Positions 21,092 through 45,139 of a stretch of 64,000 bases of DNA are shown piece by piece. Both the position numbers and the translations under genes were made by a program. Source of the stretch: Candidatus Danuiimicrobium aquiferis (lineage in GTDB: Bacteria; Omnitrophota; Omnitrophia; Omnitrophales; Danuiimicrobiaceae); contig MHFR01000042.1 in the NCBI GenBank assembly GCA_001804285.1, positions 78,725-142,724 on the forward strand, in the 5' to 3' direction. Below the pieces are notes generated by a model. The model was given only the letters and a program-made list of their open reading frames with translations, was not told where the DNA came from and searched no databases. Position 1 is the stretch's first letter. Every line of letters begins with the position of its first letter.

Positions 21092-21239
21092 GTTATTCCC
21101 GCCCCGTATCTGTGTCATTCCCGCGAAGGCGGGAATCCACATGCCGAGTAAATCTCAGCGAGAATTATGGATCCCCGCTAACCCCGGAAAAGCTGGGGCC
21201 GGCCCTTTCTTTCCCAAGGGAAACTTGCGGGGATGACAA
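21092..21239. repeat. Composite paired-hairpin elements between nuoL and nuoM (includes the long-loop variant GGATCCCCGC taaccccggaaaagctggggccggccctttctttcccaagggaaactt GCGGGGATGAC)
   Basis: Stems match the family; the loop has nested mini-hairpins. Confidence 0.8.
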
Positions 21240-21257
21240 CGCTTTAATAATGTCACT

Positions 21258-23171
21258 TTATTTTACTGCAACCAATAACATGACCAATAAACCAACCACC
21301 ATAAACAATAAATAATTTTGAACAAAACCTGTCTGAATCATCCTGAGAAGCCCGCTCGATACCTGTGCAGAAAAGCCGACAAAATTGACCAAACCGTCCA
21401 CAATATATTGATCGATCCACCGTTTGATGCGGCTGGTCAGCACCGTTTTCCGGCCGATTTCATTCACGGTTCGATCGATAACGTTTGAGTCAAACCGGAA
21501 TGAAATGCGCGAAATCCATTTGAAGGCGTGGATAAATGTTGAATTATAAATTTCATCAAACCAAAGTTTATTTCGCGAGGCGTCATAAAACATCCAAAAT
21601 TGTCCGGCCAAATGCTGAGGAAGATCAGTTTTAACGAAATAACAAATAAACGCAATGATGAAGCCAATCGTGGCTGACGCAACCGACATGATCATCACAA
21701 ACGTATCCATGTGAACCGCGGCATGGGGTTCAAGAAAATGCTGGAACCAGTGTCCCATGAACGGTGAACCGGGAAGGCCGATTAAAACAGAGCCGATGGC
21801 CAGGACGGCTAACGGAAGGGTCATGACTGCGGGCGATTCGTGAGCGTGGATATGTCCGCGGGTCTTGCCGGCGAAAGTCAGGAACAGCAGGCGGAACATG
21901 TAAAACGAAGTCATCATGGCGGTGATCATCAGAATCCAGAAAATCACCCTGTGATTTCCAAGATAAGCACTTGTGAGGATTTCGTCTTTGCTCCAAAATC
22001 CGGAAAGCGGGGGAACTCCGGCAATTGCAATGGTTGCGATGCAAAGCGGCCAGAATGTATTCGGCATGGCTTTTCTGAGCCCGCCCATTTCACGCATGTC
22101 CTGTGTGCCGGTCCCGTGGATGATGCTGCCTGCGCCCAAGAAGAGAAGCGCTTTAAAAAATGCGTGAGTCATCAAGTGGAAAGTTCCGGCGCCCATTCCT
22201 CCGACACCGAGCGCCGTGATCATAAACCCAAGCTGGCTGATGGTTGAGTAAGCGAGAACTTTTTTAATGTCAAATTGCGTGATGGCAAAGAAAGCACCCA
22301 GGAATGCCGTGGTTGTTCCCACGACGGCAATCGTTTGAGAGGCGTTCGGAAATGTTTCGAGGACCGGCCAAAGCCGCGCGACCATGAAAACGCCTGCCAC
22401 AACCATCGTCGCGGCGTGGATCAGCGCGCTCACGGGTGTCGGGCCTTCCATGGCATCGGGAAGCCAAACATGCAACGGAACTTGCGCTGATTTTCCGATG
22501 GCTCCGCAAAAAAGCAGAATGGTTGCAAAGGTGAGAACAGCTGTATTTGCGTAAGGGTGCATGAATTCCGGCGTGATATCAATAAAGCGGATCGTGCCGG
22601 TCGTATAAAAGAAAAGCGCGATTCCGAGGAAGAAGCCGACATCGCCGATCCGGTTTGTAATAAATGCTTTTCGCCCGGCCTGCGCGGCTTCATATTTTTC
22701 AAACCAGAAGCCGATCAGAAAATAAGAACACAGCCCGACCAGCTCCCAAAAAAAGTACATTTGAACAAGCGTTGACGATAATACCAGCCCGAGCATGGAA
22801 AATAAAAAGAGTGAAAGATAAGCAAAGAATCTGGAAAACCGCGGATCATTGTGCATATAGCCGACGGAATAAATGACAATGAGTGAACCGACAAAAGTTA
22901 CGACAAAAAGCATGACGGAGGAAAGCGGGTCAACGAGGATTCCGAATTCAATCGGTTTCCCGTTAATCATGAGCCATGTGAGTGATGCGTGAAGGGCAGT
23001 CCCGTGATTCAAAATGACCGGCAGAACGACGCTTGCCGATAACAGGCACGACCCGACACTTGCCGCAATGGCGATGAGTGCGCTTTTTGTCCCTAATTTC
23101 TTTCCGAAGAAAATAATCATCGTGAAAGAAATTAGCGGCAGTAATGGAATTAAAATCGCTTGAGTTACCAT
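21258..23171 (-). CDS. nuoL: NADH-quinone oxidoreductase subunit L
   Basis: 637 aa antiporter-like subunit with the long C-terminal lateral helix region. Confidence 0.9.
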   Translation of the reverse strand: MVTQAILIPLLPLISFTMIIFFGKKLGTKSALIAIAASVGSCLLSASVVLPVILNHGTALHASLTWLMINGKPIEFGILVDPLSSVMLFVVTFVGSLIVIYSVGYMHNDPRFSRFFAYLSLFLFSMLGLVLSSTLVQMYFFWELVGLCSYFLIGFWFEKYEAAQAGRKAFITNRIGDVGFFLGIALFFYTTGTIRFIDITPEFMHPYANTAVLTFATILLFCGAIGKSAQVPLHVWLPDAMEGPTPVSALIHAATMVVAGVFMVARLWPVLETFPNASQTIAVVGTTTAFLGAFFAITQFDIKKVLAYSTISQLGFMITALGVGGMGAGTFHLMTHAFFKALLFLGAGSIIHGTGTQDMREMGGLRKAMPNTFWPLCIATIAIAGVPPLSGFWSKDEILTSAYLGNHRVIFWILMITAMMTSFYMFRLLFLTFAGKTRGHIHAHESPAVMTLPLAVLAIGSVLIGLPGSPFMGHWFQHFLEPHAAVHMDTFVMIMSVASATIGFIIAFICYFVKTDLPQHLAGQFWMFYDASRNKLWFDEIYNSTFIHAFKWISRISFRFDSNVIDRTVNEIGRKTVLTSRIKRWIDQYIVDGLVNFVGFSAQVSSGLLRMIQTGFVQNYLLFMVVGLLVMLLVAVK

Positions 23172-23476
23172 TTTAAAAGGTGAATTTCATCCGTGTAAAT
23201 TGTTTTTTGGTTCCGGTAAATATTTAACACAATCGCCAAGCCAACCGCTGCGGTCGCTGCGGCGAGCACGATGGCAAACATGACAAAGATTTGTCCGCTT
23301 TCCGGTGATGAAGCAAAACTTCTCGAAAATGCGATGAAATTGACATTGACCGCATTCAACATAATCTCGATGGAAATTAGAATTCCGACGGCGTTCCGCC
23401 GCGAAAGCGCGCCATAAAGCCCGATCAGGAACAGGATCGATGTGAATACGAGGATATGGTCGATCGGAATGTGCAT
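23165..23476 (-). CDS. nuoK: NADH-quinone oxidoreductase subunit K; start reassigned to ATG at 23476 (MHIPIDH)
   Basis: ~100-aa 3-TM subunit; the track ORF is a 5' over-extension overlapping nuoJ. Confidence 0.85.
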   Translation of the reverse strand: MHIPIDHILVFTSILFLIGLYGALSRRNAVGILISIEIMLNAVNVNFIAFSRSFASSPESGQIFVMFAIVLAAATAAVGLAIVLNIYRNQKTIYTDEIHLLKW

Positions 23477-23478
23477 GG

Positions 23479-23979
23479 TTATTCGCTCCTTGCGATGACA
23501 ATGGCGCCGATGAGCGCGACTAAAAGAACAAGAGAAACCACTTCGAACGGGAACACGTATTGATTCATCAACGCTTTCCCAAGCGTCACGGCATTCACGG
23601 CGGTTTGCGGTTCGGAAGTTTCCCACGGCGTTTTCAAAATGGCGGAAATCAAAATGAATCCGACGAGGCCGAGCGGCAGGAAAACAATTTTTTTATTTTT
23701 AAAACTTTGAGGGACTGCCGGATTCCCCATCCGCGAAGTGAGCATCACGGCGAAAACAATCAGCGTCATAATGGCGCCGACGTATAAAAGGATTTGCATC
23801 GCGGCGATAAATTCGGCTTGAAGAAAGAAATAAAGCATCGCAATTCCGATCAACGTAAATGCGAGAAAAACCGCGGAATGGAACAGGTTCCGCACGGTGA
23901 CGCAGAGCGCGGCGGCAATGAGAATGCCGAGCATGGCGGCGTAAAAGGCGGTGGTGGCCAGAAATTGAAATAAGGTCAT
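23479..23979 (-). CDS. nuoJ: NADH-quinone oxidoreductase subunit J
   Basis: 166 aa, 5-TM profile, operon position. Confidence 0.85.
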   Translation of the reverse strand: MTLFQFLATTAFYAAMLGILIAAALCVTVRNLFHSAVFLAFTLIGIAMLYFFLQAEFIAAMQILLYVGAIMTLIVFAVMLTSRMGNPAVPQSFKNKKIVFLPLGLVGFILISAILKTPWETSEPQTAVNAVTLGKALMNQYVFPFEVVSLVLLVALIGAIVIARSE

Positions 23980-24000
23980 AAAAGATTCCTGAGTGAGAAA

Positions 24001-24112
24001 ATCCCAATGGCCAAGTACGCAATGACCAACGAGATTCCCAAAAGAAGAAATTCCAATTGGAATTTATGATTTGCCAATTTATTGGTCATTGAGATTTGGT
24101 CATTGATCATTT
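24001..24112. repeat. CAATGACC/GGTCATTG-type intergenic element between nuoJ and nuoH
   Basis: CCAATGG..AATGACCAA...TTCCAATTGGAATTT...TTGGTCATTGAGATTTGGTCATTGATCATTTT. Confidence 0.75.
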
Positions 24113-25266
24113 TATTCATATGCATACTTATAAATTCTTTTCTTCGGTGCGACTTTTCTGTTGGCGACGTAAATCATCAAAACAGAAACGGTTAAAATAC
24201 AGAAACTGAGGATGTCATTCAACGGGAAACTCAAATGCACCCAAAGTGCCGCAGCCAATAAATTAATGAATGCAAGCGGAAGGAGTCCTCGCCAGGCGAA
24301 ACCCATGAGCTGATCCACACGCATTCTCGGAAACGTGCCGCGAAACCACATCATGATTGAAATTAAAACGAATGTTTTCGCGAAAAACCAAAGCCAACTC
24401 GGAAGAATCGGCCCCTGCCAGCCGCCGAGATAAACCGTCGTGACAAGAGCAGAAACGCTGAACGCATTCATGTACTCTGCCATATAGAAAAGCGCGAATT
24501 TCATTCCGCTATATTCCGTATGAAATCCCGCGATAATTTCCGACTCGCCTTCGGGAAGATCAAACGGGCAGCGGTTGACTTCGGCCACGCCGGTTAAAAA
24601 GAAAAGAATGAATCCAACCAATCCCCACGGCGTGAAAACAAACCACTGTAAACCTTCCTGTGCGTTGACGATGGCAACCGTGGAAAAGGAGCCGACGACG
24701 AGAAGCGCCGGCACAATCGAAAGCAACATCGGGATTTCATAAGATACCATTTGCGCGACGGCGCGCATTCCGCCGAGGAGTGAAAATTTATTTCGCGAGC
24801 CCCATGCAGCCGTAAAAATCCACAAAGTCGAGGTGGATGCCACCGCGAAAAAGAAAAGAATTCCGATTGAAAGATCGGAAGGAATCATGTTCCGGCCGAA
24901 GGGGATCACCGAAAAAACAAGCAGGGAAGGGATGATCACGGTAATGGGGCCGAGGAAATGAGCAAAGGGGTCGGCTTTTTGGGGCACGATATCTTCTTTG
25001 GTGAACATTTTAATTCCGTCTGATAGGGGTTGAAGAAGGCCAAAGATTCCGCAGCGGTTTGGGCCGTAACGATTTTGCATCCGGCCGATAAATTTCCGTT
25101 CGAGGAGCGTCAGATACATCATGACAACGGGTCCGAAAACGCAAAGCGTGACGATGACGATAAAAATAGAAATCAGGATCATCATCCATTCCGGGAGGAA
25201 CGGCGACAGGATGTCGAGAATGATTTGTTTTGCTTTAATGAATATTTGGTCAATGGTATTTAGCAT
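24112..25266 (-). CDS. nuoH: NADH-quinone oxidoreductase subunit H
   Basis: LLERKFIGRMQNRYGPNRCGIFGLLQPLSDGIKMFTKED matches the NuoH/ND1 signature. Confidence 0.9.
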   Translation of the reverse strand: MLNTIDQIFIKAKQIILDILSPFLPEWMMILISIFIVIVTLCVFGPVVMMYLTLLERKFIGRMQNRYGPNRCGIFGLLQPLSDGIKMFTKEDIVPQKADPFAHFLGPITVIIPSLLVFSVIPFGRNMIPSDLSIGILFFFAVASTSTLWIFTAAWGSRNKFSLLGGMRAVAQMVSYEIPMLLSIVPALLVVGSFSTVAIVNAQEGLQWFVFTPWGLVGFILFFLTGVAEVNRCPFDLPEGESEIIAGFHTEYSGMKFALFYMAEYMNAFSVSALVTTVYLGGWQGPILPSWLWFFAKTFVLISIMMWFRGTFPRMRVDQLMGFAWRGLLPLAFINLLAAALWVHLSFPLNDILSFCILTVSVLMIYVANRKVAPKKRIYKYAYE

Positions 25267-25279
25267 AGGTTAATTTAAA

Positions 25280-25392
25280 ATCTCAATGACCAAGTGTCAA
25301 TGACGCAATGAAATCCCAAAAAGATTAATTTCCAATCGGGATTTAAAATATTGAAATTTTCTTGGTCATTGCGTGCTTGGTCATTGGTCATT
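25280..25392. repeat. CAATGACC-family element between nuoH and nuoI
   Basis: Shared AATGACCAAG / CTTGGTCATTG subunits and AAATCCCAAAAAGAT core. Confidence 0.75.
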
Positions 25393-25891
25393 TCTCTTTT
25401 GCCTTCCTTTTTTCTTCAACCTTCTTTGCTGTTTCCGGCCGGATTTTCGAAAAATATTCGGCTGATTTCGCGAGCCGGTCTTTGGTGTACAAGAATTCTT
25501 CGGATCGTTCGTACGCTGACAGCTCAAATTGACGGTCCATATAAATCGAATCAAACGGACAGACTTCTTCGCAAATTCCGCAATTCATACAAACGGAATA
25601 ATCAATATCGAAAAATTTTGGTTGCTTCAAAGGTTTTCCGGCTTCATCTTGTGCCCGGACAATGCTGATGCATTTTGGCGGACATTCCTTTGCGCAGATT
25701 TCGCACGCAACGCAGCGGAGTTTGTCCGGTGATTCATCGTAAACAAGAATCGGAAACGTTCGAGCGTGCTCGCTTAAGGTAATCCGTTCTTCGGGATATT
25801 GAACAGTGGTTAAACGCTTGCGTGTGAAATAACTGAGCGTAAAATTCTTAATCGTGACCCAAAGGCCCTTTAGAACTCCTAAACCGTACAT
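25388..25891 (-). CDS. nuoI: NADH-quinone oxidoreductase subunit I (2x[4Fe-4S] ferredoxin)
   Basis: Two CxxCxxCxxxCP motifs (CVACEICAKECP, CMNCGICEEVCP). Confidence 0.9.
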   Translation of the reverse strand: MYGLGVLKGLWVTIKNFTLSYFTRKRLTTVQYPEERITLSEHARTFPILVYDESPDKLRCVACEICAKECPPKCISIVRAQDEAGKPLKQPKFFDIDYSVCMNCGICEEVCPFDSIYMDRQFELSAYERSEEFLYTKDRLAKSAEYFSKIRPETAKKVEEKRKAKEK

Positions 25892-25914
25892 TCGATCCCT
25901 TTCTGCTTCTTAAA

Positions 25915-26052
25915 ACTCCAATGACTCAATCTCAATGCCGCAAAGAAATCCCAAAAAGATAAAGTTCCAATTGAAATTTGAAACATTGGAACTTCCTTGG
26001 CCATTGCCTGCCCGCCATGCATTTTGGCGGGGGTTTTGGTCATTGATCATTT
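25915..26052. repeat. CAATGACC-family element between nuoI and nuoD
   Basis: Shares a ~70-bp block with the 28385 copy in reverse complement. Confidence 0.8.
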
Positions 26053-26054
26053 TT

Positions 26055-27215
26055 TTATCTATCTACCTCTCCCAGCACAATATCAATACTTCCTAAAATA
26101 ATAATGACGTCCGCCACTTTTTGCCCGATACACATATCTTCGAGTACGGTCAAATTGATAAAACTTGGTGCGCGAACATGGTAACGATACGGCTTCCCTG
26201 AACCGTCGCTTACAAGATAAAACCCAAGTTCGCCTTTTGGCGCTTCCGTACGCCCATAAGCATCGCCCTTCGGTACCTTTAAGGTGCGCGGCATTTTTGC
26301 TGCTTGCGCGCCGGCCTTGCTAATCACTTCGCCGTCCGGGATTTCGTTAATGGCTTGCTCAAGAATCTGCAGGCTTTCGCGCATTTCAAGAATCCGGACA
26401 TAATAACGGTCGTATACATCGCCCGCTTCGCCCACGGGCACGCGGAATTTAAACCGGCCGTATATAGAGTACTTGTCGATTTTCCGGATATCATACGGAA
26501 TTCCGGACGCGCGAAGCACAGGGCCGGTAATTCCGGCGTTGACCGCCAAAGCTTTCGGCAAGATTCCGACATTTTGGCAGCGGGATAAAAGGATTTCGTT
26601 ATGGGTCAGCAACTCTTCGAGTTCATCCAGGAATTTTGGAAATTGATTCACAATCTCCCGGACGCGTAGAATAAAATCCGGCGGAACATCTCGCTTTACG
26701 CCGCCGAAACGGAAATAATTGCACATCATCCGGCTTCCCGTGACATCTTCAAATAAATCGAGCAATTTCTCCCGTTCGCGGAATGCGTAAAGGACCGGCG
26801 TAAAAAAAGCGCCGAGGTCGTTCAGGAGAAATCCCACGAGAACGATATGGTTTATGAGGCGGGTGAGTTCGGCCATGATGACGCGAAGATATTGCGCGCG
26901 CTCCGGGACTTCAATGCCGGCCAGTTTTTCGACGGCAAGCGCGTATGAAAAATTATTCGCGAGTGCGCAAAAGTAATCCAGACGGTCTGTGTAAGGCATG
27001 CAGGCGAGCCATGACATATTTTCCATCAACTTTTCATGATTCCGGTGGAGATAGCCCATGACTGGTTTCAACCGGATCACTTGCTCGCCGTCCAATACGA
27101 CATCCATTTGAAATACGCCGTGCGTGCTCGGATGTTGCGGGCCGAGGCTTACTTCAAGCCGCTGTGTGTCGAGGGTTGATTGTTGATCCATATTTTGTAG
27201 GTAAGGGCAATTCAT
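26055..27215 (-). CDS. nuoD: NADH-quinone oxidoreductase subunit D (49 kDa)
   Basis: Full-length NuoD conservation including [10 protein letters not shown] and the C-terminal ...GEVDR. Confidence 0.95.
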
Positions 27216-27229
27216 GAATTGCCCCTACG
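27198..27229. repeat. REP-like palindrome GTAAGGGCAATTCATGAATTGCCCCTAC, intergenic nuoD-nuoC
   Basis: Near-identical to the 39322 copy. Confidence 0.85.
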
Positions 27230-27240
27230 GGTAAGTGTGT

Positions 27241-27693
27241 TCATATTTTCCTGTCCTGATCTTCCGTTACATAATCTTTCCGCAAGGGATGTCCAACAAA
27301 ACCTTCCCACATAAAAATGCGCCGCAAATCCGGATGTCCTTCAAAATGAATCCCGAGCAAATCATAGGCTTCTCGCTCTTGGAATTCCGCGCTGCGCCAA
27401 ATTGAGACGACGGACGGAATTTGTGCCGCATTCCGGTCTGTCCGAATTTTGATCACAAGCGGGCCGCATTCTCTTCCCATCGAATACAAATGATAAACCA
27501 CTTCCAAATAGTCTTTGTAATCAGTGCCTGTGACGGAAGAAAGGTAGTCAAATGAATATTCCGGATCTGTTTTTAAAAAGGAAGCAATCTCCGGCCACTT
27601 TTCTTTTGGAATGAGCAGAGAATTATTTTCGATGGAAATTTGAACGCCGAATTTCGTTTCGATAGCTTGTTTGATTTCTTCGATTGTTTTCAT
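27241..27693 (-). CDS. nuoC: NADH-quinone oxidoreductase subunit C (30 kDa)
   Basis: 150 aa, NuoC-type motifs ([21 protein letters not shown]). Confidence 0.9.
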
Positions 27694-27705
27694 GTGATTA
27701 TTGTT

Positions 27706-27733
27706 GTAGGGGCACGGCGCGCCGTGCCCCTAC
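27706..27733. repeat. REP-like variant GTAGGGGCACGGCGCGCCGTGCCCCTAC, intergenic nuoC-nuoB
   Basis: Same GTAGGGGCA...TGCCCCTAC ends, different loop. Confidence 0.75.
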
Positions 27734-27738
27734 GTACA

Positions 27739-28365
27739 TTACACCGGTACGTTTTCCTTTATTTTAAATACTTCCGGATTATACGGCGGAATAAGTCCGT
27801 TCGGGCCGTATTCCGGAACCGGGAATTCGCGTTTGAATCCTTTTTGATACCATTCTGTTTTCTCGACTTCCTGCGATTCGATTTTCTCCTGTAATTTAAT
27901 TAAAGCTTCGAGCAATGCTTCGGGCCTTGGCGGGCATCCGGGGATATGAACGTCAACGGGAATATACCGGTCAATTCCGCGGACGACATTGTAACCGTCG
28001 CGGAATGGGCCGCCTGAAATAGCGCAAGCGCCCATTGCGATACAATATTTCGGTTCCGGCATCTGGTTGTAAAGCCGCACAACCTGTGGAGCCATTTTTT
28101 TCGTGACTGTTCCCGAGATGATCAGCAAATCCGCTTGCCGCGGCGATGGGCGGAACAGCCCGGCCCCGAAACGGTCAATGTCATATCTGGCCGCGGCAGC
28201 CGCAATCATTTCAATCGCACAGCAGGCAAGACCGGCTGTAAGCGGCCAAATCGAATATTTCCGTCCCCAATTATACAGAAAATCGACGGAGGTCAAGAAA
28301 ACCCCGCGTTTCTCCAAGTTGGCTTTAAGTTGAGGATTTATATTGTTTTGGTTCGGGTTAAGCAT
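27739..28365 (-). CDS. nuoB: NADH-quinone oxidoreductase subunit B (20 kDa, N2 cluster)
   Basis: CCAIEM...GACAISGG...PGCPP cysteine motifs. Confidence 0.95.
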
Positions 28366-28384
28366 ATTTATTCATAATTATAAA

Positions 28385-28520
28385 TTCTCAATGACCAAAT
28401 CCCCCTCCAAAATGCATGGCGGGCAGGCAATGGCCAAGGAAGTTCCAATGTTTCAAATTTCAATTGGAACTTTATCTTTTTGGAATTTCTTTGTGTCATT
28501 GAGATTTGGTCATTGGTCAT
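28385..28520. repeat. CAATGACC-family element between nuoB and nuoA
   Basis: Reverse complement of the 25915 copy's core (AATGCATGGCGGGCAGGCAATGGCCAAGGAAGTTCCAATG...). Confidence 0.8.
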
Positions 28521-28526
28521 TTTAAT

Positions 28527-28898
28527 CTATTTCCATTCCAGCACATTCTTTTTCCATGCATAAATTAAACCGAGAATTAAAATTGCGAGAAAAATAAACA
28601 TTTCTACAAGAGCAAATAAGCCCATTTGCTTATAAGCAACCGCCCATGGATAAATAAAAATCACTTCAATATCAAAAATGACAAAAATGAGTGCGTAGAT
28701 ATAATATTGCACTTTGAACTGAATCCACGATTCGCCCTTCGACTCAAGGCCGCATTCGTAAGTTGATTGTTTGACAGGGTTTGGTTTCTTAGGAGCAAGA
28801 AAATAGGCCAATACCAAAGGGATGAAGGGAAAGACAATTGCGACCAGAAAAAACAGGCCTATGAACAGGTACTGATAGCTATATGCGTCTGGGGTCAT
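28527..28898 (-). CDS. nuoA: NADH-quinone oxidoreductase subunit A
   Basis: 123-aa 3-TM protein at the head of the nuo cluster. Confidence 0.85.
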
Positions 28899-28986
28899 CC
28901 GGTTATCTTTGTTGAAGTAAAAACGCGGTTCATCCGCTTCTTAAATTTTATTCATTAAGGTTATAAGCGTATCGAAAATGAGCGTT

Positions 28987-29040
28987 TCTGTCAATTTGAA
29001 AGACAGAACATTTTTTACTTTCAGAGACGTCTTGACGATA
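28987..29040 (-). promoter_or_regulatory. Candidate nuo operon promoter (minus strand: TTGACA - 17 nt - TACGCT) overlapping a 21-bp palindrome TCTGTCAATTTGAAAGACAGA
   Basis: Sequence inspection upstream of nuoA; the palindrome is operator-like. Confidence 0.35.
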
Positions 29041-29163: not shown

Positions 29164-30090
29164 TCACGTTGTAGTTTCGTTTTTCCAATGCGTTAGATCC
29201 CGATTTAATAGACGAGATAACTTATTTCGATCTTCTCTAAAAAAATCAATCAATTCTTTCCGGAATAAGGGATCCAACGGCTTCCGTTTGACAAATATCC
29301 GATTATGGCGCCTAACCCACGGAGCAATTCCAAACCGTTTCAGACCGGTAAGCGTTTTTATCATACGCATTGCCCAGACAACAGCCGGCGGAAGCGCGGA
29401 AAAAAAAGTCGCAAGGCGCGGGTATCGATTTATCTTGTTCCGGTTGATGCGCGGGAACTCGGTGCGTGCATCAGCGGGAACATTCAAAAACTCCAGAACC
29501 TCCCGGTAAATGCATTCGGGTGCTGCGGAAAAATCTTCATTTAAAATTACCTTTATTTGATTGCGCGGGAAGATTGAATACACCCGTTCCAACTGTTCGC
29601 CAAATTTGGCGATGTCCGAATACAAAAGGAACTTAGGATTGTTGCGGAGAGGCGGGAGCGGCTGTTCTGTCCTTCGTTTTTCGATTGCATTCCACGCGTC
29701 TTTCAAATCGGTAATTGGTTCAACACAATTATAAACCAAACAGGCGTGCCATGAAGCCACGAAGTCGACATGATTTCGGATTAAGACAATGATCTTTGAT
29801 TCCGGATTGAATTTCCGGATTTTTTCTACCGCAACTTTCGAAGAGAGATAAAGCACCGCGCCTTCTCCTGCGGCGATATGAAATGGAGTCGCTTCTTTAA
29901 AAAAATCGACGTACTCATCCTCGGTTTTTGCCAAACGCTGTTCCATCCGGCTCGTAGAGAAATCTTCTGCGAAAAAGTGGATTTCTTTGGGGCGGCTCAC
30001 AAAAACCCGCGGATTTGTCCTGAGATAGTCACAGAGAGAAGTGGTTCCGCATCTCGGCGCGCCAAGGATAAAAAAATTAGGATATTTCAT
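29164..30090 (-). CDS. Sulfotransferase-family protein (PAPS-dependent)
   Basis: N-terminal 5'-PSB-like motif ILGAPRCGTTSL; ~300 aa. Confidence 0.6.
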   Translation of the reverse strand: MKYPNFFILGAPRCGTTSLCDYLRTNPRVFVSRPKEIHFFAEDFSTSRMEQRLAKTEDEYVDFFKEATPFHIAAGEGAVLYLSSKVAVEKIRKFNPESKIIVLIRNHVDFVASWHACLVYNCVEPITDLKDAWNAIEKRRTEQPLPPLRNNPKFLLYSDIAKFGEQLERVYSIFPRNQIKVILNEDFSAAPECIYREVLEFLNVPADARTEFPRINRNKINRYPRLATFFSALPPAVVWAMRMIKTLTGLKRFGIAPWVRRHNRIFVKRKPLDPLFRKELIDFFREDRNKLSRLLNRDLTHWKNETTT

Positions 30091-30284
30091 TTGTATTTTA
30101 TGGTTTTCAGATAACGTATCTATCGCACGGATTCTTAAAGTGAATCAATATGATGATATTCTTTTTTGCGGCATATTTCCATTAGTTGATAATAAGGGGT
30201 GCCATCAATCCAACGGATTTTACCAATTTTTCAACAGATTGTCTTTCTGAATTGAAAGAGAAACGTGCTGTTTACTTAGCCCTG

Positions 30285-30560
30285 ATTTCTCATCACTAAT
30301 GAGAGATTCCGCTCGTAAGAGCTGCGGTGCAAAGAGGGTTTACTTCTTTGCGACGCAGGTTTGACTTTCCATAGATCATTTTATAAGGGAGTCAAAACCA
30401 GTCCTTGAGCTTTCATTGAAAGTTAAATTTCGTTTGAGAGTGGCGCAAGGGCAGGGCTTATCTTTTGCGCCCTGTTTGAACAAGGGCGCAAAACTTTGGA
30501 CGCAACTGATTGCGCCCAAAGCGACTTTCTCGTCGATTCACAAAATCGATAAGAAAGTCG
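30285..30560. repeat. MITE-like element (reverse orientation) carrying a ~100-bp internal insertion
   Basis: Ends match the family in reverse complement; central segment 30360-30445 is unique. Confidence 0.75.
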
Positions 30561-30629
30561 GGTTAGTGAGATTCTACGTCGATACAATAGGAAATAAAGG
30601 CGAAATATTGTGAAAGGGGAAGATTTACC

Positions 30630-31295
30630 ATGGGAATAGAATATTATGTTAAACAATTATGGCCGGTTCTCGCCATTTCGGGTTTTTTCGGGCTTGTTTT
30701 ATATGTGAATTATTATCTTCAGAGAAAACGGACACAAACTTTGCAGCAAGCGGCAATGACGCTGGGTTTTTCATTTGAAGAAGAAGCACCGGAAATGTTC
30801 CATGAGAACTTTTCGCTCCCGATTTTTGAGCGCGGACATTCACATCATGTCCGGAATGTGATGCGGGGCGAAACGGCCGGAACGGAAAGCCTCTTTTTTG
30901 ATTTCCGGTATACCGTAGGACATGGTAAACATAGTTCGACCTCTAATCAGACGATTGCAGCATTTCATTTGGCAAACGGCAAACTTTGCGGCTTTGAATT
31001 AAGGCCCGAGTTTATTTTTCACCAGCTGACTGAGCCATTTGGTTACCATGATATTGATTTTCCGGAAAACCCTGTATTTTCCAAGAAATATTTCCTGTGC
31101 AGTGAAAGTGAAGCGGCTGTGCGAAACTTATTTAACATGGAAGTTCTTCAATTTTTCGAAAATGCATCCGGCTGGTGCGTGCAGGCAAACCAAGAATGGT
31201 TGATTGTGTATCGAAGCGCGAAGTTGGTGAAACCGGAAAACTTTCAGCAGTTTGTGTCGGAGATGTCGAATATCCTGCGGTTGTTCCATCAATAA
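30630..31295 (+). CDS. Hypothetical protein with N-terminal TM helix
   Basis: ORF with RBS-like sequence and a downstream hairpin terminator; no family recognised. Confidence 0.4.
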   Translation: MGIEYYVKQLWPVLAISGFFGLVLYVNYYLQRKRTQTLQQAAMTLGFSFEEEAPEMFHENFSLPIFERGHSHHVRNVMRGETAGTESLFFDFRYTVGHGKHSSTSNQTIAAFHLANGKLCGFELRPEFIFHQLTEPFGYHDIDFPENPVFSKKYFLCSESEAAVRNLFNMEVLQFFENASGWCVQANQEWLIVYRSAKLVKPENFQQFVSEMSNILRLFHQ

Positions 31296-31309
31296 AAGGT
31301 ACTTTATAA

Positions 31310-31350
31310 GAAAAAGGGCAACCCCTCATTTTCAGGAGTTGCCCTCACAA
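31310..31350. terminator. Hairpin terminator between convergent genes 30630-31295 and 31372-31698
   Basis: AAAAAGGGCAAC ccctcattttcaggag TTGCCCT. Confidence 0.55.
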
Positions 31351-31371
31351 GTTAAACAAATCGGTTTAATT

Positions 31372-31698
31372 CTAGTAATTTTGGTTTAAAAAATCTTGAA
31401 TTTTCTCGGCCTCATTGGCGTTGATAAACCCATCCTGGTTTGTGTCGTATTTTTTGACGAATTTTTGTTTTGTAACAGCCGATTTTCCGTCGGAATTTAC
31501 TTGGTCAACGACGCTTTGTAATGTTTTTTTGACAAATGCGTCATATTTGGTTTGATTGAAAGCGTTTGCATTTCCAATGAAAGTGCCAAATACCATGACG
31601 AGTAGCGTGATAGAAATGATCATTGTTTTCATGTTGGTTCTCCTTTGTTGGTTTGTTAAAAAGCGCGAATCATTTTTGTTCACAATTTTATTGGACAA
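31372..31698 (-). CDS. Small secreted EF-hand calcium-binding protein
   Basis: Signal-peptide-like N-terminus; canonical EF-hand loop DTNQDGFINANE. Confidence 0.5.
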   Translation of the reverse strand: MSNKIVNKNDSRFLTNQQRRTNMKTMIISITLLVMVFGTFIGNANAFNQTKYDAFVKKTLQSVVDQVNSDGKSAVTKQKFVKKYDTNQDGFINANEAEKIQDFLNQNY

Positions 31699-32200
31699 TA
31701 GGATTGTTTTCAGGGATACCTCCTTCGGCAGGTTTTTTTGTATTTTGTAAATTAGCGTAAACTTCTTGTCCTAAAACATTTTTTGCCAATACGTCTTTAT
31801 CTTCTCCGTTATCAAAATCGTATTCCATGACGGCGAGAATTTTGATAGCGGTTGGTAATCCTTGGGAAAAACCGGGGGTTTGCTTTAGGAGTTGGCTTAC
31901 CCCGTCAACGTAAAACTCTGCCGGTTTCCGGAGGATTGCTTTTTCGCGTATTTTAAATAACTCAATCGTGGTTTGAACGGCTTTCAGTTTATAAGCGGGC
32001 AAAATGTCGTTCCAGTTTTTTAATGTGCTCATTAATTCATTCATCATCAGCTGATAAATGGCAGGATTGATTTTTTCTTTGCTATTGTCTGGTTGGCGAG
32101 AAGCTTCTTTTTCAATCAGTTTGTTTGATTCGCCGGGTTTCTGTTCAGAACACGAAACCAGCGCGAAGCTTATCATGACTATCCATATGAATATTTGCAT
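31688..32200 (-). CDS. Hypothetical lipoprotein (start at MQIFIW..., lipobox LVSC)
   Basis: Signal peptide plus LVSC lipobox; the track ORF is 5'-extended to 32251. Confidence 0.4.
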   Translation of the reverse strand: MQIFIWIVMISFALVSCSEQKPGESNKLIEKEASRQPDNSKEKINPAIYQLMMNELMSTLKNWNDILPAYKLKAVQTTIELFKIREKAILRKPAEFYVDGVSQLLKQTPGFSQGLPTAIKILAVMEYDFDNGEDKDVLAKNVLGQEVYANLQNTKKPAEGGIPENNPIVQ

Positions 32201-32227
32201 ATAACCGCCTTTTTGCTTTTGGCCTAA

Positions 32228-32275
32228 CCCGACTTCCTCATCGATTCGCAAAATCGATGAGGAAGTCGGGTTAAT
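32228..32275. repeat. Mini-copy: terminal hairpin of the MITE-like family only (AACCCGACTTCCTCATCGATTCGCAAAATCGATGAGGAAGTCGGGTTA)
   Basis: Perfect 20-bp stem; same terminal sequence as the family. Confidence 0.7.
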
Positions 32276-32284
32276 TTCTTATTG

Positions 32285-32345
32285 GCTAATAATATGCCAC
32301 ATGGATCATGAAGTTAACGTGACGGAAAAATGAATTTTTCTTCAT
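32285..32345 (+). promoter_or_regulatory. Conserved ~60-nt motif (ATGCCACA...CATGAAGTT...TGACGGAAAAAT..TTTTCTTCATTTCC) upstream of the response-regulator/histidine-kinase operon; a second copy lies at 36010-36070 upstream of nfeD
   Basis: Two near-identical copies found by eye; a third partial GAAATGACGGCAAAAC at 36207-36222. Confidence 0.4.
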
Positions 32346-32498
32346 TTTCCATACGAAAAACAGAGTCGAAAGAGGGTTTTAATAGGCTTTCAAATTCACG
32401 CCGTGTTATAATAAAAACGCGTAACGAAAAACGTCATTATCCTCAGTTTCGATAGCTTTATTTTGATGGGTAATGACTATCAGGTTAAGGAAATCCAC

Positions 32499-33179
32499 AT
32501 GCGTATTTTAATTATTGAAGACGAAGAAAAAGTAGCACGGTTTGTCAAAGAGGGATTGGAAGAAAATAATTTTTCGGTTGATATTGCACATGACGGTGAA
32601 CAAGGTTTGTTTTTGGCCCAAAACGAAAAGTATGACGCTATTATTTTAGATTTAACCCTTCCTAAACGGGATGGTCTGGACATTTTGAAAACGCTCCGTA
32701 CGCAAGGCCATTCAGTTCCTGTTTTGTGTCTTACGGCAAGAGGCAAATTAGAGGAAAAACTTGCGGGATTTAATGCGGGTTCGGATGATTATCTTGTGAA
32801 ACCTTTTCGTTTTGCGGAACTTCTTGCGCGGGTTAGAGCATTGATTAAACGGGTTTATCAAATGGTGCCTAATACCCAGTTGAAAATCGAGGATTTATGC
32901 TTGGATCAGCTGACTAGGAAAGTGACGAGAGGGAGTCGTGAAATTTTTTTGACGGCAAAAGAATACGCAATTTTGGAGTACTTGATGCTGAATGCCGGAC
33001 AAATTGTTACCCGGACCATGATTTCGGAAACAGCGTGGGACTACAATTTCGGATCGATGTCAAACGTCATTGATGTTCATGTGAAGCGGCTTCGCGAAAA
33101 AATCGACGGAGATGAGAAAGAAAAATTGATACATACAGTCAGGGGTGCAGGGTATGCTCTTAAAAAAGCGGAAATTTGA
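32499..33179 (+). CDS. OmpR-family two-component response regulator (start at MRILIIEDE)
   Basis: Receiver domain with conserved Asp; C-terminal winged-helix (trans_reg_C-like). Confidence 0.85.
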   Translation: MRILIIEDEEKVARFVKEGLEENNFSVDIAHDGEQGLFLAQNEKYDAIILDLTLPKRDGLDILKTLRTQGHSVPVLCLTARGKLEEKLAGFNAGSDDYLVKPFRFAELLARVRALIKRVYQMVPNTQLKIEDLCLDQLTRKVTRGSREIFLTAKEYAILEYLMLNAGQIVTRTMISETAWDYNFGSMSNVIDVHVKRLREKIDGDEKEKLIHTVRGAGYALKKAEI

Positions 33180-34605
33180 AAAATTCACATTCAAAAGTGT
33201 TGGTTGGAAACTAACGTTTTGGCATGCTGCGGTATTCTTAGTTTCGATCGTTTTGCTGGCTTCGTATTTGTACTACCGGCTCGAAACAAAATTATACCGA
33301 GAAGGGGATTTTTATTTGGCTGACGAAACGAATGAATTTGTTCAATTTGTCACTGACCATAAAGAGGATCTTCGCGCGATTGAACATCAAATACAAAAGG
33401 AAACGGTTGCGATCCGGAAATATTATCAAATGTACTATGCCGTCGTAAGTTCCGGCGGGAAAGTTATTCTGGAATCAAGCGAATTCACGCCATTTATCCA
33501 CGGAACAAAGCCCGTTGTTTCATCGGCCGTTGCGGATGCTGTCGTCCGGGAGTATGCGTTGGGAACCGCGGCTGACATGTATCATGTCAGAGTCGTCACG
33601 CATTCTATTTATAAAGGCGAAGACCTTTTGTATTATGTTCAAGTCGGGATGAACCTTTCACAGTTGGAAGCGACCTTACTGGATTACCGGCAGATTTTGA
33701 TTTATGCGATTCCTTTGTTTTTTATGGTTTCTTTGGGGGGCGGTTATTTTTTGGCGCGGCGCACGATGAAACCGATTTCTGAAATTATGAAGACCGCGAA
33801 ATCAATCACCGCGTCCAATTTAAGCGAGAAGTTTCATATCCGCGGAACGGGAGATGAGTTTGATGAGCTATCGAGGACATTTAACGAAATGATTGAACGG
33901 CTTGAGGAGGCGTATCGTAAACTGTCACGCTTTTCGCAAGATGTTGCTCATGAGTTGCGGACGCCGATTACAGCTTTGATCGGAGAAGTCGAAATTGCGC
34001 TCGCAAAAGAAAGAACGAATCAAGATTATAAAACGGTTCTTTTGAGTAATTTAGAAGAACTGATTCGTTTGATGCGTTTGACGGAAAATTTGCTTTTATT
34101 TTCTCAGGACGGCAGTCAACTTGAAGTTAAAGAAGTAAATCTTAACGATGTTATTTTAGATGCAGTGGAATTGTTCCGGCCGGTTGCCGAAGAAAGAAAT
34201 GTCATACTTAAGATGGATACTGTTACCCAAATATTTTTTGTCCGGGGAAATAAATCGCATTTCGAACAAGTTCTTTCAAACTTGCTTGATAATGCGATTC
34301 GTTATAACCGGCCGGGAAGCGATGTGTCGGTGTCGCTCAATCAAGTTGACGAATTTGTCGAGCTCGTAGTTGCCGATCGGGGAATCGGAATCCCGGAGAA
34401 TGAACAAGGGAAAATTTTTGATCGTTTTTACCGGGGAGAATCTTCCGAGGTGCGCAGCGCCGGCGGAACAGGGCTTGGTTTAAGCATTGTCCGGTCGATT
34501 GTCGAAGGGTTCGGCGGTACGATTACGGTAGCAAGCCAGTCCGGTGTGGGAAGCGCTTTTACTGTCCGATTTCCTGTGTGTCATTCCGAGTTGGCGGCGG
34601 TTTGA
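33145..34605 (+). CDS. Sensor histidine kinase (2 TM, HAMP, HisKA, HATPase_c)
   Basis: H-box HELRTPIT; N, G1 and G2 boxes (DNAIRY, DRGIGIP, GGTGLGLSIV); overlaps the regulator gene. Confidence 0.85.
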   Translation: MQGMLLKKRKFEKFTFKSVGWKLTFWHAAVFLVSIVLLASYLYYRLETKLYREGDFYLADETNEFVQFVTDHKEDLRAIEHQIQKETVAIRKYYQMYYAVVSSGGKVILESSEFTPFIHGTKPVVSSAVADAVVREYALGTAADMYHVRVVTHSIYKGEDLLYYVQVGMNLSQLEATLLDYRQILIYAIPLFFMVSLGGGYFLARRTMKPISEIMKTAKSITASNLSEKFHIRGTGDEFDELSRTFNEMIERLEEAYRKLSRFSQDVAHELRTPITALIGEVEIALAKERTNQDYKTVLLSNLEELIRLMRLTENLLLFSQDGSQLEVKEVNLNDVILDAVELFRPVAEERNVILKMDTVTQIFFVRGNKSHFEQVLSNLLDNAIRYNRPGSDVSVSLNQVDEFVELVVADRGIGIPENEQGKIFDRFYRGESSEVRSAGGTGLGLSIVRSIVEGFGGTITVASQSGVGSAFTVRFPVCHSELAAV

Positions 34606-34781
34606 TTTCAATTTCGATACCCCTTCCAAATGTACGGTTTAACAACTCAAGGACAGCGTTAAGCTCAAAAAAGGGGACAGGTTTTGACGCCATTGAACCA
34701 GAACCTGATCCCTTTTTTCTATTCGATTCGTTTCAAAGGGATATACATCCGTACAGGGTGCTGCGGTGAGGGGACCGGGGA

Positions 34782-35945
34782 TTAATTCAAAAAGACCGGT
34801 TGTATGAATGCGATTTTTTTCTTGGAATTTGTGATTTTCCCTCTGATATAAATTTCATCACCACGCGGAATATATGTGGCTTTTTTCCCTTCAACTGATT
34901 TCAAAATGCGGCCCTTGGCACCAATGAATTCGATGAAATATAAAACCCCGGGTTCCGGTTGTACTTCAATTTTCAATTCTGCAGATTTGGAAAAATCGAG
35001 CGTTTTTAGTTGAATCCCATTAGTGGCATAGAAATTTCCATTTTCTATCGCAGCCATGATAGCTTCAGGCGTTAGTTCTTCCGTTTTCGCCCAAATCCAA
35101 CGAGTCCCCGGGACTAGAATATCTTTGTAAGTAAAATCATCATAAGGGTCGTTTAACTGAACCTGTTCCGGGTGATCATATGTTTTAAATAAGTGGGCAT
35201 CGTCAACAGCAAGGCCGTAAAGCCGACGCTTTGAGGTCAGTAATTGGTCCCACATATTTTCCGAGAGATAATCGCCGTGGGCCGGGCTCATTAATTCAAA
35301 CAGATTAAGCCCACGGATTTTTTTAACTTCGTTTGCGGAAAATGCGACAGAAGGGTGATTGAGGACTGCGACTCCACCACCGCTTCGGATTTGCTGCATC
35401 ACATTTTCGATTCGTGAACGGTTTTTAAGAAGATAAAGCATCCGTCGAATATCTTTTCTCTCAGGATATTTGATTAATAGCGCCCGCGAGAAAGCTTTCC
35501 ATTTTTCCGAATCTTCGGCATCCGGGTTGTAGATAATTGGTGCTTTTAAGTTCAGGGCATTCATATGTATGTGATGCTGTCGTTCGATGGAGATTTCAGT
35601 CCCCGGGATAACAAGCATTTGATGCTTGCCATTTTTTTTTATCATGGTTTTCAAAGGCGGTTGATCATGGTCGGTAATCGCAATAAAATCATACTGATGG
35701 TCAAAATACCATTGAATGACTTCTTCCGTGGAAGTATCTCCGCCCGGTGCGCGGTTGGAATGCGCGTGGACATTGCCCTTAAACCATTTCATTTCAGCCG
35801 ATTGGCAAGGAAGGCTCAGCATACCACTTAAAAGGTAAGTTGTAATAGCAAGCGGCAATATAAGATAGAAGCGGTGCGCGCTGAAAAATAGCAAGGTCAA
35901 AACGGCCTTTTTCTTGCGGATTGAATTAGGCGATAACGGGTACAA
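34782..35945 (-). CDS. Secreted PHP-domain / CehA-like metal-dependent phosphoesterase candidate
   Basis: N-terminal signal peptide; HAHS...DH metal-binding motifs (GNVHAHSN, ITDHDQ). Confidence 0.5.
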   Translation of the reverse strand: MYPLSPNSIRKKKAVLTLLFFSAHRFYLILPLAITTYLLSGMLSLPCQSAEMKWFKGNVHAHSNRAPGGDTSTEEVIQWYFDHQYDFIAITDHDQPPLKTMIKKNGKHQMLVIPGTEISIERQHHIHMNALNLKAPIIYNPDAEDSEKWKAFSRALLIKYPERKDIRRMLYLLKNRSRIENVMQQIRSGGGVAVLNHPSVAFSANEVKKIRGLNLFELMSPAHGDYLSENMWDQLLTSKRRLYGLAVDDAHLFKTYDHPEQVQLNDPYDDFTYKDILVPGTRWIWAKTEELTPEAIMAAIENGNFYATNGIQLKTLDFSKSAELKIEVQPEPGVLYFIEFIGAKGRILKSVEGKKATYIPRGDEIYIRGKITNSKKKIAFIQPVFLN

Positions 35946-36231
35946 TTGAATTTGTCTCCTGTTGTGAAACCGCCTTTTTGTTTTTTTAATTTCTTTTTTT
36001 ATTCATAATAATTATGCCACACTCATCATGAAGTTGAAATGACGGAAAAATTAAATTTTCTTCATTTCCGCCATAAGCGGATAACCTCCGCGCATAGATT
36101 TGCCGCAGAAGATAGGAAAAAATAAAAGTTTCACCGCGCATGATTAGGATTATAATATTTATTATGTTTTAGGATAGCAACGCGTTAAGGTAAAGAGTTA
36201 AAATAGAAATGACGGCAAAACAATTCCTTCT

Positions 36232-37704
36232 ATGAAATATCGCTACAAACCCGATTCTTTTTTCGTTGCTTTGATTGCGCATTTTTTGTTTTACGGATTC
36301 ATTTTGTTAACGTCACAACCATGCTTTTCTGCCGAAACCGGGCAGGTTAACGTCATAGCGCTGGATGATGCGACGATTAATCCCGTGACCGCCGCTTACA
36401 TTACGAAAGCGATCGATCGTGCGGCTGAAGATAGGTCAGAATGCCTGATCATTAAATTGGATACGCCAGGCGGGTTAGTTACATCGACGCGCGAAATTGT
36501 GAAGAAAATGATGTCTTCAACCATTCCCGTTGTGGTTTATGTGGCTCCGTCGGGTGCGCGAGCGGGTTCGGCTGGTGTTTTCATTACTTACGCGAGCCAT
36601 GTCGCGGCGATGGCGCCGTCGACCAATATCGGCGCGGCACATCCGGTTGAGGTGGGCGGTGGCGGAGACCGGACACGGAATGTTTGGGATGCGGTCCGCG
36701 ATTTATTGGATTTGTATTCAAAGAAACTTTCAAAAGAATTCGGCGGGAAACAAATTCCCCAAGGCGAAACGAAGGAGAGCGAGGCAAGTCCGCCTGCGGG
36801 CGAGGCAAGCAATCAGGATATTTTGAGCGGCAAAATTTTAAACGATACGCTTGCGTTTATTAAGGCGATTGCGGTCGAACGGAACCGGAATGTTGAGTGG
36901 GCGGTGAAAGCCGTTCGGGAAAGCGCATCCATTACGGAAACGGAAGCCAAACAAACCGGCGTAATTGAAATCATCGCGAAAGAAGAACAGGATCTTTTGA
37001 CGCAGCTGGATGGGCGGGTTGTGAAAGTTGCGGGGCAGGAAAAAATACTTAAAACTTTGAATGTGGTCGTGAAAGAAATTCCCATGAGTTTGAGTGAGCG
37101 GATTTTGAATGTGCTCGCCCACCCGAACATTGCTTATATTTTCATGATGCTCGGGTTTTACGGACTTCTGTTTGAAGTGACGCATCCCGGGACCGGTATC
37201 CCCGGAATTTTAGGAACGATTTTTATTGTCATTGCCTTTTTCAGTATGCAGATGCTCCCGACCAATTATGCGGGCTTGGCGTTAATTATTTTGGCAATTG
37301 TGTTATTCATTGCTGACGTGAAGGTCCCCGGTTTTGGTTTTTTTACGCTTGCCGGTTTGGTTTCGCTCGTTTTGGGGTCGCTTCTTCTGTTTCAATCTCA
37401 AGATGAAGTGATGAGGCTCTCGATGTCGATCGTGATGTCTTTTGCGATCGCAACGGCGATGATTACAACCGCGCTGGTAAGGCTTGTGTTTTTGTCTCAC
37501 CGGAGGAAAATTAAAAGTGGGAAAGAAGCAATGATCGGCGAAATGGGTGAGGCATTTTCGGATTTTAAACCAAACGGCGAAGGAAAAGTGTTCATCGTCG
37601 GCGAAATTTGGGATGCGGTTTCGAAAGATGAATTACGGAAAGGGGATAAAGTTAAGATATTGAAGGTGAAAGGGTTGATGTTGGAAGTGGAGAAAGTCAA
37701 ATGA
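36232..37704 (+). CDS. NfeD-like membrane-bound ClpP-class serine protease with C-terminal OB-fold
   Basis: ClpP-like N-domain (TPGGLV...), multi-TM middle, soluble beta-rich C-terminal domain; paired with a stomatin gene downstream. Confidence 0.8.
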   Translation: MKYRYKPDSFFVALIAHFLFYGFILLTSQPCFSAETGQVNVIALDDATINPVTAAYITKAIDRAAEDRSECLIIKLDTPGGLVTSTREIVKKMMSSTIPVVVYVAPSGARAGSAGVFITYASHVAAMAPSTNIGAAHPVEVGGGGDRTRNVWDAVRDLLDLYSKKLSKEFGGKQIPQGETKESEASPPAGEASNQDILSGKILNDTLAFIKAIAVERNRNVEWAVKAVRESASITETEAKQTGVIEIIAKEEQDLLTQLDGRVVKVAGQEKILKTLNVVVKEIPMSLSERILNVLAHPNIAYIFMMLGFYGLLFEVTHPGTGIPGILGTIFIVIAFFSMQMLPTNYAGLALIILAIVLFIADVKVPGFGFFTLAGLVSLVLGSLLLFQSQDEVMRLSMSIVMSFAIATAMITTALVRLVFLSHRRKIKSGKEAMIGEMGEAFSDFKPNGEGKVFIVGEIWDAVSKDELRKGDKVKILKVKGLMLEVEKVK

Positions 37705-37743
37705 ACGCGCGATCTTACGGAACGTAAGTCGCTGCGTGAATTT

Positions 37744-37851
37744 GATCCCCGAATGTCTTTATCGGGGAACCATGTTTATTAGATTCCCGCTAACCCCGGA
37801 AAAACTGGGGCCGGTCCTTTCTTTCCCAAGGGGAGCATGCGGGAATGACAC
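37744..37851. repeat. Paired-hairpin element with long-loop variant between nfeD and the stomatin gene
   Basis: GATCCCCGA..TCGGGGAAC then GATTCCCGC taaccccgg...ggggagcat GCGGGAATGAC; a compensatory stem change relative to the 21171 copy. Confidence 0.8.
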
Positions 37852-45125: not shown

Positions 45126-45139
45126 AAAAAAACAGATGC

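Follow-up and report, generated by a model that had tools for sequence, protein, structure and literature searches.

Hairpin doublets resembling the Neisseria Transformation Sequence in an uncultured Omnitrophota genome, with a discrete 39-nt module in the loops of a long variant

We analysed a 64-kb stretch (hereafter the window) of an uncultured groundwater Omnitrophota metagenome-assembled genome (MAG), 'Ca. Danuiimicrobium aquiferis', and found eight inverted hairpin doublets, or 16 hairpins, at ~4850, 16772, 21114, 37741, 41605, 45062, 55847 and 56435. The short-loop hairpin, TGTCATTCCCGCGAAAGCGGGAATCCAG, agrees at 27 of 28 positions with the consensus of the Neisseria Transformation Sequence (NTS), whose hairpins restrict incoming single-stranded DNA (ssDNA) in Neisseria. 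We consider it probable, at roughly 60%, that the window's hairpins are repeats of the class formed by the NTS and the Ssn-related motifs (SRMs), read and cut by a GIY-YIG nuclease of the Ssn family when single-stranded. A sequence-only reading of this DNA had already described a paired-hairpin repeat family with a structured long-loop variant, and the family is borne out, 15 of the 16 hairpins in the eight doublets having perfect 8-bp stems.

Only in 2025 was this hairpin family characterised, when a new class of ssDNA nucleases that cut site-specifically was found to target it (PMC11893778, Nat Commun 2025). The NTS consensus is CGTCATTCCCGCGMAVGCGGGAATCYRG, and SsnA, a 94-aa GIY-YIG protein, binds and cuts the NTS solely as ssDNA and on one strand, acting on neither double-stranded DNA nor RNA; cleavage is determined chiefly by the three bases that precede the palindrome, and binding depends most on the C directly after it (PMC11893778). 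SRMs, described as hairpins of 20–50 nt, flank ssn genes across many phyla (PMC11893778). At up to two mismatches, CGTCATTCCCGCGMAVGCGGGAATCYRG matched the window four times, two of these with one mismatch, and never in 100 shuffles, while the published degenerate SRM pattern matched seven times (three of them 9-nt-loop hairpins), where 50 first-order Markov simulations gave 0.12 matches on average. Thus, chance is excluded as the source of the resemblance.

The functional flanks of the NTS are present as well. The hairpins in the window are built asymmetrically, with GTC preceding the palindrome and C succeeding it, and both flanks are present in 15 of the 16. Within each doublet the GTC ends point outward and 10–40 nt separate the two hairpins, whose loops fall into three classes: 4 nt (GAAA-like), 9 nt (TTAAAGCAT-like on the plus strand) and long. 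The same outward layout surrounds a gene in L063, an unrelated IMG/VR contig in which two hairpins identical to the window's short-loop hairpin enclose a 97-aa GIY-YIG gene (NTS -> gene <- NTS, 2950–3377); the closest named relatives of its protein are from Sphingomonadales. Since the window doublets share this layout with only 10–40 nt between their hairpins, we read them as gene-less derivatives of such a unit. Plasmids searched by BLAST with doublet 1 also yielded the short hairpin, in genera such as Neisseria, Azospirillum, Sphingopyxis and Legionella, without leading to a partner gene for the window's hairpins. The features of the family in the window are as follows.

4849..4917, plus strand: doublet 1; hairpin A (4850-4873) is GTC + ATTCCCGC GAAA GCGGGAAT + C, hairpin B (4888-4916) is inverted with a 9-nt loop; NTS match at 4849-4876 with 1 mismatch; host element at ~4790-4957, degenerate and resembling a miniature inverted-repeat transposable element (MITE)
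16772..16839, plus strand: doublet 2; two 9-nt-loop hairpins, ATTCCCGA..TCGGGAAT and ATTCCCGC..GCGGGAAT, between divergent atpB and TPR genes
21095..21103, plus strand: orphan half-arm ATTCCCGCC, immediately upstream of doublet 3
21113..21140, plus strand: doublet 3 hairpin A, TGTCATTCCCGCGAAGGCGGGAATCCAC, NTS-like with 2 mismatches; overlapped by a mechanical 510-aa nuoM open reading frame (ORF)
21167..21237, plus strand: doublet 3 hairpin B, long-loop copy 1; stem ATCCCCGC (21171-21178) and GCGGGGAT (21227-21234), 48-nt loop, GAC up to 21237; in the nuoL-nuoM spacer, both genes on the minus strand
21182..21220, plus strand: 39-nt loop module copy 1, CCCCGGAAAAGCTGGGGCCGGCCCTTTCTTTCCCAAGGG
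37741..37771, plus strand: doublet 4 partner hairpin, TTG + ATCCCCGA ATGTCTTTA TCGGGGAA, 9-nt loop; degenerate, with the GTC flank lost and the outermost pair mismatched
37779..37849, plus strand: doublet 4 hairpin B, long-loop copy 2; stem ATTCCCGC (37783-37790) and GCGGGAAT (37839-37846), 48-nt loop, GAC up to 37849; in the nfeD-stomatin spacer, both genes on the plus strand
37794..37832, plus strand: 39-nt loop module copy 2, differing from copy 1 at 2 positions
41605..41673, plus strand: doublet 5, ATCCCCGA..TCGGGGAT plus ATTCCCGC TTAAAGCAT GCGGGAAT, between divergent BNR-protein and ychF genes
45062-45125, opposite in orientation to the other doublets: doublet 6, inside a MITE-like composite (45019..45178, minus strand); NTS match at 45099-45126, minus strand
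55847..55945, plus strand: doublet 7, inside a giant ORF; hairpin A has a loop module of another kind, 45 nt long (55858-55902) and made up of TCCGCC..GGCGGA mini-hairpins, and hairpin B reads ATCCCCAC TTGC GTGGGGAT
56435..56488, plus strand: doublet 8, inside the giant ORF, with the in-frame translation ..VIPAKAGIQLDPHLRGDD..

Another GTCAT-headed hairpin type, GTCATTGCGAG...CTCGCAAT, adjoins NTS-like doublets in two related contigs (L005, 16480–16530; L043, 20240–20280) and may be a second family of Ssn-related motifs.

The two long-loop hairpins had drawn attention through a compensated change in the outer stem and near-identical loops of about 50 nt with two mini-hairpins. Both observations hold: stem position 3 is C-G in one copy and T-A in the other, and the 48-nt loops are identical at 43 positions, the whole 69-nt elements being 90% identical. 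DNA folding and an RNAalifold consensus both predict two adjacent mini-hairpins in the loop, CCCCGG/CTGGGG (with one G.T) and CCCTT/AAGGG. The element ends first given differ from ours by 2–4 nt, which is immaterial; both elements are real.

A scan of metagenomes for the loop core returned 27 stretches, made up of 16 complete long-loop hairpins, one partial copy (L030) and ten chance matches in unrelated contexts, and a scan of one genome per species gave only four chance matches, that representative set being without this sequence. Together with the window there were 14 distinct long-loop sequences, 13 of which were aligned; L027, which has a further hairpin in its right arm, was left out. 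The proposed structure was 97% paired on this alignment. Only one of its 19 pairs had changed on both sides, namely stem position 3 (U-A 7, G-C 4, C-G 1), and the outer stem otherwise carried four single uncompensated substitutions. Mini-hairpin 1 (helix 2) was invariant, which the search pattern partly forced, and mini-hairpin 2 (helix 3) showed two breaks, one wobble and no compensation.

A wider census took in 56 distinct hairpins from the window and the related contigs, the search fixing stem positions 1, 2 and 4–6. Stems were perfect in 52, and three positions showed compensated change: position 3 (T-A 34, G-C 12, C-G 9, one C.A mismatch), position 8 (C-G 48, A-T 7, one T.G) and position 7 (G-C 53, A-T 1, two mismatches). 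The base following the palindrome was C in 56 of 56, and the GTC flank, which the search demanded on one side only, was present in the census hairpins. All three position-3 pair types occurred within both the 9-nt and the long-loop classes, so the change happened, or was transferred, more than once.

A stem of mostly fixed sequence with few free positions, and with conserved flanks beyond the helix, fits a protein that reads a folded DNA strand; it does not fit an RNA constrained by structure only. The sequence-only reading had argued for selection on secondary structure, and this stands for the stem, where compensated changes uphold the pairing, and not for the loop mini-hairpins, which are without compensatory change. 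Pairing in the stem may be kept by selection on propagation or by a mutational mechanism such as templated correction within the hairpin.

Nor is the conserved long loop a structure shaped by covariation. It is an ordinary 9-nt loop with a discrete insert of 39 nt: TTA + CCCCGGAAAAGCTGGGGCCGGCCCTTTCTTTCCCAAGGG + AAGCAT, compared with TTAAAGCAT in doublet 5 (41654–41662). Across the 13 aligned copies, mean pairwise differences were 0.29–0.33 for the loop bases beside the insert, 0.12–0.13 for the arms and 0.05 for those 18 bases of the module left unconstrained by the search; variation in the module (0.02–0.05) is about one-sixth of that in the loop bases adjoining it. Hairpins carrying the module include all three pair types at position 3, and their partners include hairpins of every kind. 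The module is present in four diverged copies (L017, L022, L023 and L037) of a composite element 195 nt long, and a fifth copy (L029), near-identical to L023 and from the same bin as L020, is without exactly these 39 nt; on the small tree of composite copies, a single precise loss explains this more parsimoniously than repeated gains would. Recurrent inserts of another kind are found in the 4-nt-loop hairpin; they consist of TCCGCC..GGCGGA mini-hairpins and have lengths of 45 to ~88 nt (window 55858–55902, L015, L018 and L019).

Searches for the module elsewhere gave no Rfam match, no match of its second half in viral contigs and no diverged copies in the related contigs examined. Assemblies of the same population showed no presence/absence polymorphism of the module, all copies being identical. 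A free-standing module in L030 depends on an unverified join of two loci and serves as a hint only. In L027 (1003–1094) the right arm of the long-loop hairpin is split by a further small hairpin, GCGG-ACCTGCCTGCCGGACAGGCAG-GGATGAC. The loop modules of 39 and 45 nt are both multiples of three. Insertion, removal and conservation of the 39-nt module are unaccounted for by any current model. It might be a very small insertion or recombination cassette, non-autonomous and directed at the apical loops of folded hairpins, that is gained or lost at TTA^AAR, possibly a relic or miniature of a hairpin-targeting IS110-type element, or else a selected second binding site; we regard these ideas as speculative and rather improbable. 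If the module were an independent unit targeting hairpin loops, it would rank with the smallest known mobile sequences, a view for which the evidence is only suggestive.

Several points weigh against an Ssn-type explanation of the hairpins. No ORF of the GIY-YIG/Ssn type was found in the window, in the 10 kb to its left or in ~150 kb of related contigs, and searches of the window and the related loci by regular expression and phmmer were negative. Two large protein searches not limited to this organism, one with a GIY-YIG consensus (whose PDB hits 1zg2 and 1ywl confirmed it as a probe for this domain) and one with the L063 protein, matched thousands of environmental or Sphingomonadales proteins and gave no homologue labelled Omnitrophota among the best 120 hits, which says little either way. 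The long-loop forms, as 64-nt hairpins, exceed the 20–50 nt range of SRMs, and the Ssn model gives no account of the 39-nt module. Each of the two long-loop loci carries the same element in all sampled assemblies, with no sign of current mobility. In genomes with over 200 SRMs, an ssn homologue is present in 81% and lacking from 19% (PMC11893778). We nevertheless infer, because of the motif, its functional flanks and this published association, that an Ssn-type enzyme probably exists in this genome and acts on the GTCAT hairpins.

On this model, the palindrome with GTC upstream and C downstream would fold as an ssDNA hairpin, which a small GIY-YIG nuclease of the Ssn family would bind, cutting nearby. 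Inverted doublets, without a gene between their hairpins, have spread into intergenic spacers, an operon, a MITE-like element and a giant ORF. Stem pairing would be kept since only foldable copies could be recognised or propagated, with most stem positions fixed in sequence and a few, chiefly position 3, free to vary provided that pairing stays. The long-loop variant is a 9-nt-loop hairpin that carries the 39-nt insert at TTA^AAR, copied to many loci or gained and lost at them.

Other readings of the same hairpins were weighed against this one. At the RNA level, the transcribed hairpin could stabilise mRNA, work as an attenuator between the genes of an operon or serve as a small RNA (sRNA), with the mini-hairpins as functional RNA structure. 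The operon contexts that had made this attractive were confirmed, the neighbouring products being NuoL/NuoM and NfeD/Band_7 stomatin, so two long-loop copies do lie between co-transcribed genes; the predicted structure of the long-loop hairpin is stable, and the G.T in mini-hairpin 1 would be G.U in RNA. An NTS-like hairpin is also part of an experimentally detected Francisella sRNA, FtrB. However, lenient Rfam settings gave only sub-threshold matches in the window, the best being FtrB itself (a weak 21.8 bits vs 66), and no family reached its gathering threshold; moreover, deletion of FtrB had no phenotype (PMC3091763) and SsnA does not bind the RNA form of its target (PMC11893778). Orientation is mixed: long-loop copy 1 is antisense to its own operon and copy 2 sense, and over all co-directional gene contexts the 39-nt module lies sense in three and antisense in five, two further long-loop loci being convergent and one divergent. 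The module is non-palindromic and its antisense RNA has C.A in place of G.U, so the two orientations yield different RNAs. Other copies sit in divergent promoter regions or within an ORF (three doublets lie between divergent genes and two inside the giant ORF), the loop mini-hairpins show no covariation, and the conserved GTC and C lie outside the helix. Orthologous operons of relatives are without the element: at 66–67% NuoL identity, the nuoL-nuoM spacer is 19–21 nt long, with only a ribosome-binding site and no hairpin, and hairpins are few or absent in the ~22-kb loci of these relatives (one doublet occurs elsewhere in L043). Thus, the nuoL-nuoM doublet is a derived insertion and not a conserved regulator. 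An RNA function of the hairpins is not supported, and we hold it to be very improbable.

Two further explanations invoke transposases acting on DNA. The doublets might be REPINs (paired repetitive extragenic palindromes, REPs) mobilised by the REP-associated tyrosine transposase (RAYT) encoded in the window, an HUH Y1 enzyme whose hairpin recognition would be reflected in the compensated stems. A RAYT-like gene is indeed present (39376–39936, minus strand), with the motifs HIH and YxxxNP (Y..ENP) and a Pfam Y1_Tnp score of 29.1 bits (cutoff 23), and two doublets lie at a distance of 1.5–1.7 kb. All eight doublets are inverted, and doublet 1 forms a single long hairpin on folding; the other three that were folded (3, 4 and 7) each give two hairpins instead, and the two stems differ across doublets. 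Against this, the NCBIfam REP_Tyr_transpos match (E 2.3e-17) scores 63 bits, below the model cutoff of 80, and the gene is flanked and interrupted by a different, GTAG-headed palindrome, GTAGGGGCAATTCATGAATTGCCCCTAC, one copy lying 24 nt past the stop codon (39323–39350) and the second in frame within the gene, between the HUH and Tyr motifs (39606–39633). The GTCAT hairpins have the head GTCAT and no GTAG in all copies, do not abut the RAYT gene, and carry the sequence of the Ssn motif. Recognition of a folded single strand by a protein, as the sequence-only reading had proposed, is still the best reading of the element, but its HUH candidate is weakened because the RAYT is flanked by its own GTAG-type repeat, and we consider mobilisation by this RAYT unlikely. 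A variant of the RAYT-associated palindrome, GTAGGGGCACGGCGCGCCGTGCCCCTAC, lies at 27706–27733.

The hairpins could instead be passengers of a MITE of ~160–195 nt with 24-bp terminal inverted repeats (TIRs), moved by a DDE transposase. Doublet 6 sits in the middle of such an element (45019..45178, minus strand), with TIRs at 45019–45042 and 45155–45178 and an 8-bp target duplication, TATAAAAA, at 45011–45018 and 45179–45186. It belongs to a MITE-like family of 160–195 nt with the 24-bp TIR GTATTTGTTTAGCGTTTTGAAGTG and 8-bp duplications, of which five related copies (L017, L022, L023, L029 and L037) were found, with duplications TCTCTTTT, TATTCCCA and TCGGTTTG; degenerate TIRs also surround doublet 1 (~4790–4957). 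TIRs are absent at the other six doublets, both long-loop copies included, and thus occur at just two of eight; a search allowing up to three mismatches gave one element only. The hairpins also occur with many different partners and spacers. Being a passenger would cover the spread of some copies and not the hairpin itself, and as an account of the family we find it quite unlikely.

The repeats have consequences for gene calling in their surroundings. The longest, mechanical nuoM ORF (510 aa) starts inside hairpin A of doublet 3, at 21142, while the product called in other assemblies has 487 aa and a start near 21073; the repeat therefore creates a spurious N-terminal extension, and annotators should be wary of such extensions and of peptide motifs such as VIPAKAGIQ that these repeats produce. 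The NuoL protein of the window recurs unchanged in four NCBI MAG records of Omnitrophica bacteria and is also present in metagenome assemblies from the Rifle aquifer. The nuo operon itself has 11 genes and no nuoE/F/G. Its spacers (23171–28527) are 120–185 nt long and filled with repeats, and the same genes abut or overlap in relatives. The giant open frame (45401–64000, plus strand) has at least 6200 codons and runs off the end of the window. Doublets 7 and 8 are in frame within it, translated ..SSSVIPAKAGIQLDPHLRGDDTNLR.., and the 45-nt loop insert of doublet 7 adds 15 extra codons.

Other repeats are interspersed with the doublets. A palindromic family, TAACCCGACTTTCTCATCGATT..AATCGATGAGAAAGTCGGGTTA, has six copies (6120–6171, 7517–7568, 7844–7895, 17237–17288, 30514–30565 and 32222–32273), some within larger 130-nt repeats (7519–7651 and 17239–17371). 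Short repeats of the CAATGACCAAG / TTTGGTCATTG type occur at 23997–24117, 25276–25397, 26035–26056, 28480–28527, 41806–41950 and 44041–44163; they are partly tandem with a 15-nt period (41806–41861), and inverted blocks of them flank several genes. Two assemblies of the same population (L005 at 16451 and L006 at 16452, corresponding to ~16715 in the window) diverge fully ~55 nt beyond doublet 2, directly after the motif AAAAAACGGTCAGGTTGAG, which also succeeds a doublet in L024. The pattern points to a breakpoint of rearrangement at the repeat cluster.

Among known systems, the Neisseria repeat dRS3 shares the core ATTCCC-N8-GGGAAT with the 4-nt-loop hairpins and likewise forms repeat units in mosaics, although dRS3 is defined without oriented flanks. 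In neisserial intergenic mosaic elements (NIMEs), dRS3 copies flank RS units of 50–150 bp, whereas the extra sequence of the window family sits within the hairpin loop. REPs, their mosaics (BIMEs) and REPINs with RAYTs are alike in consisting of extragenic inverted palindrome doublets with compensated stems, recognised as folded ssDNA, and a RAYT is present in the window; the GTCAT hairpins, however, are without the GTAG head, and the repeat flanking the RAYT is another family. The element at 45019–45178 is built like QMITE2 of Coxiella burnetii, a MITE of 150–190 bp with 21–31 bp TIRs, direct repeats of 7–13 bp and an extragenic palindrome mid-element (PMC5896051), but organism, TIRs and palindrome differ, that of Coxiella being GTAG-type. 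Francisella FtrB (Rfam RF02748) is a transcript of ~115 nt whose probe sequence shows the NTS-like hairpin GTCATTCCCGCGTAGGCGGGAATC (PMC3091763); no other part of FtrB occurs in the window.

The closest counterpart is the NTS/SRM system with SsnA, in Neisseria meningitidis and many other bacteria (PMC11893778), which the window family resembles in sequence (27/28), in the GTC and C flanks, in its mostly extragenic location and in the NTS -> ... <- NTS arrangement, as around ssn genes and in L063. It differs in its host, an Omnitrophota MAG from a phylum that is absent from the text of PMC11893778; in its gene-less doublets with a 9-nt-loop partner hairpin, two of them inside an ORF, with no ssn gene in the sequence searched; and in the long-loop forms of both hairpin types, which bear structured inserts of 39 nt or 45–88 nt. 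A near-identical motif in an uncultured Omnitrophota genome thus widens the host range of NTS-type hairpins, and their packaging here is new, as gene-less inverted doublets, as residents of a MITE and in frame within a giant gene. These findings fit the NTS-ssn-NTS arrangement being, or having been, a mobile unit that leaves non-autonomous copies.

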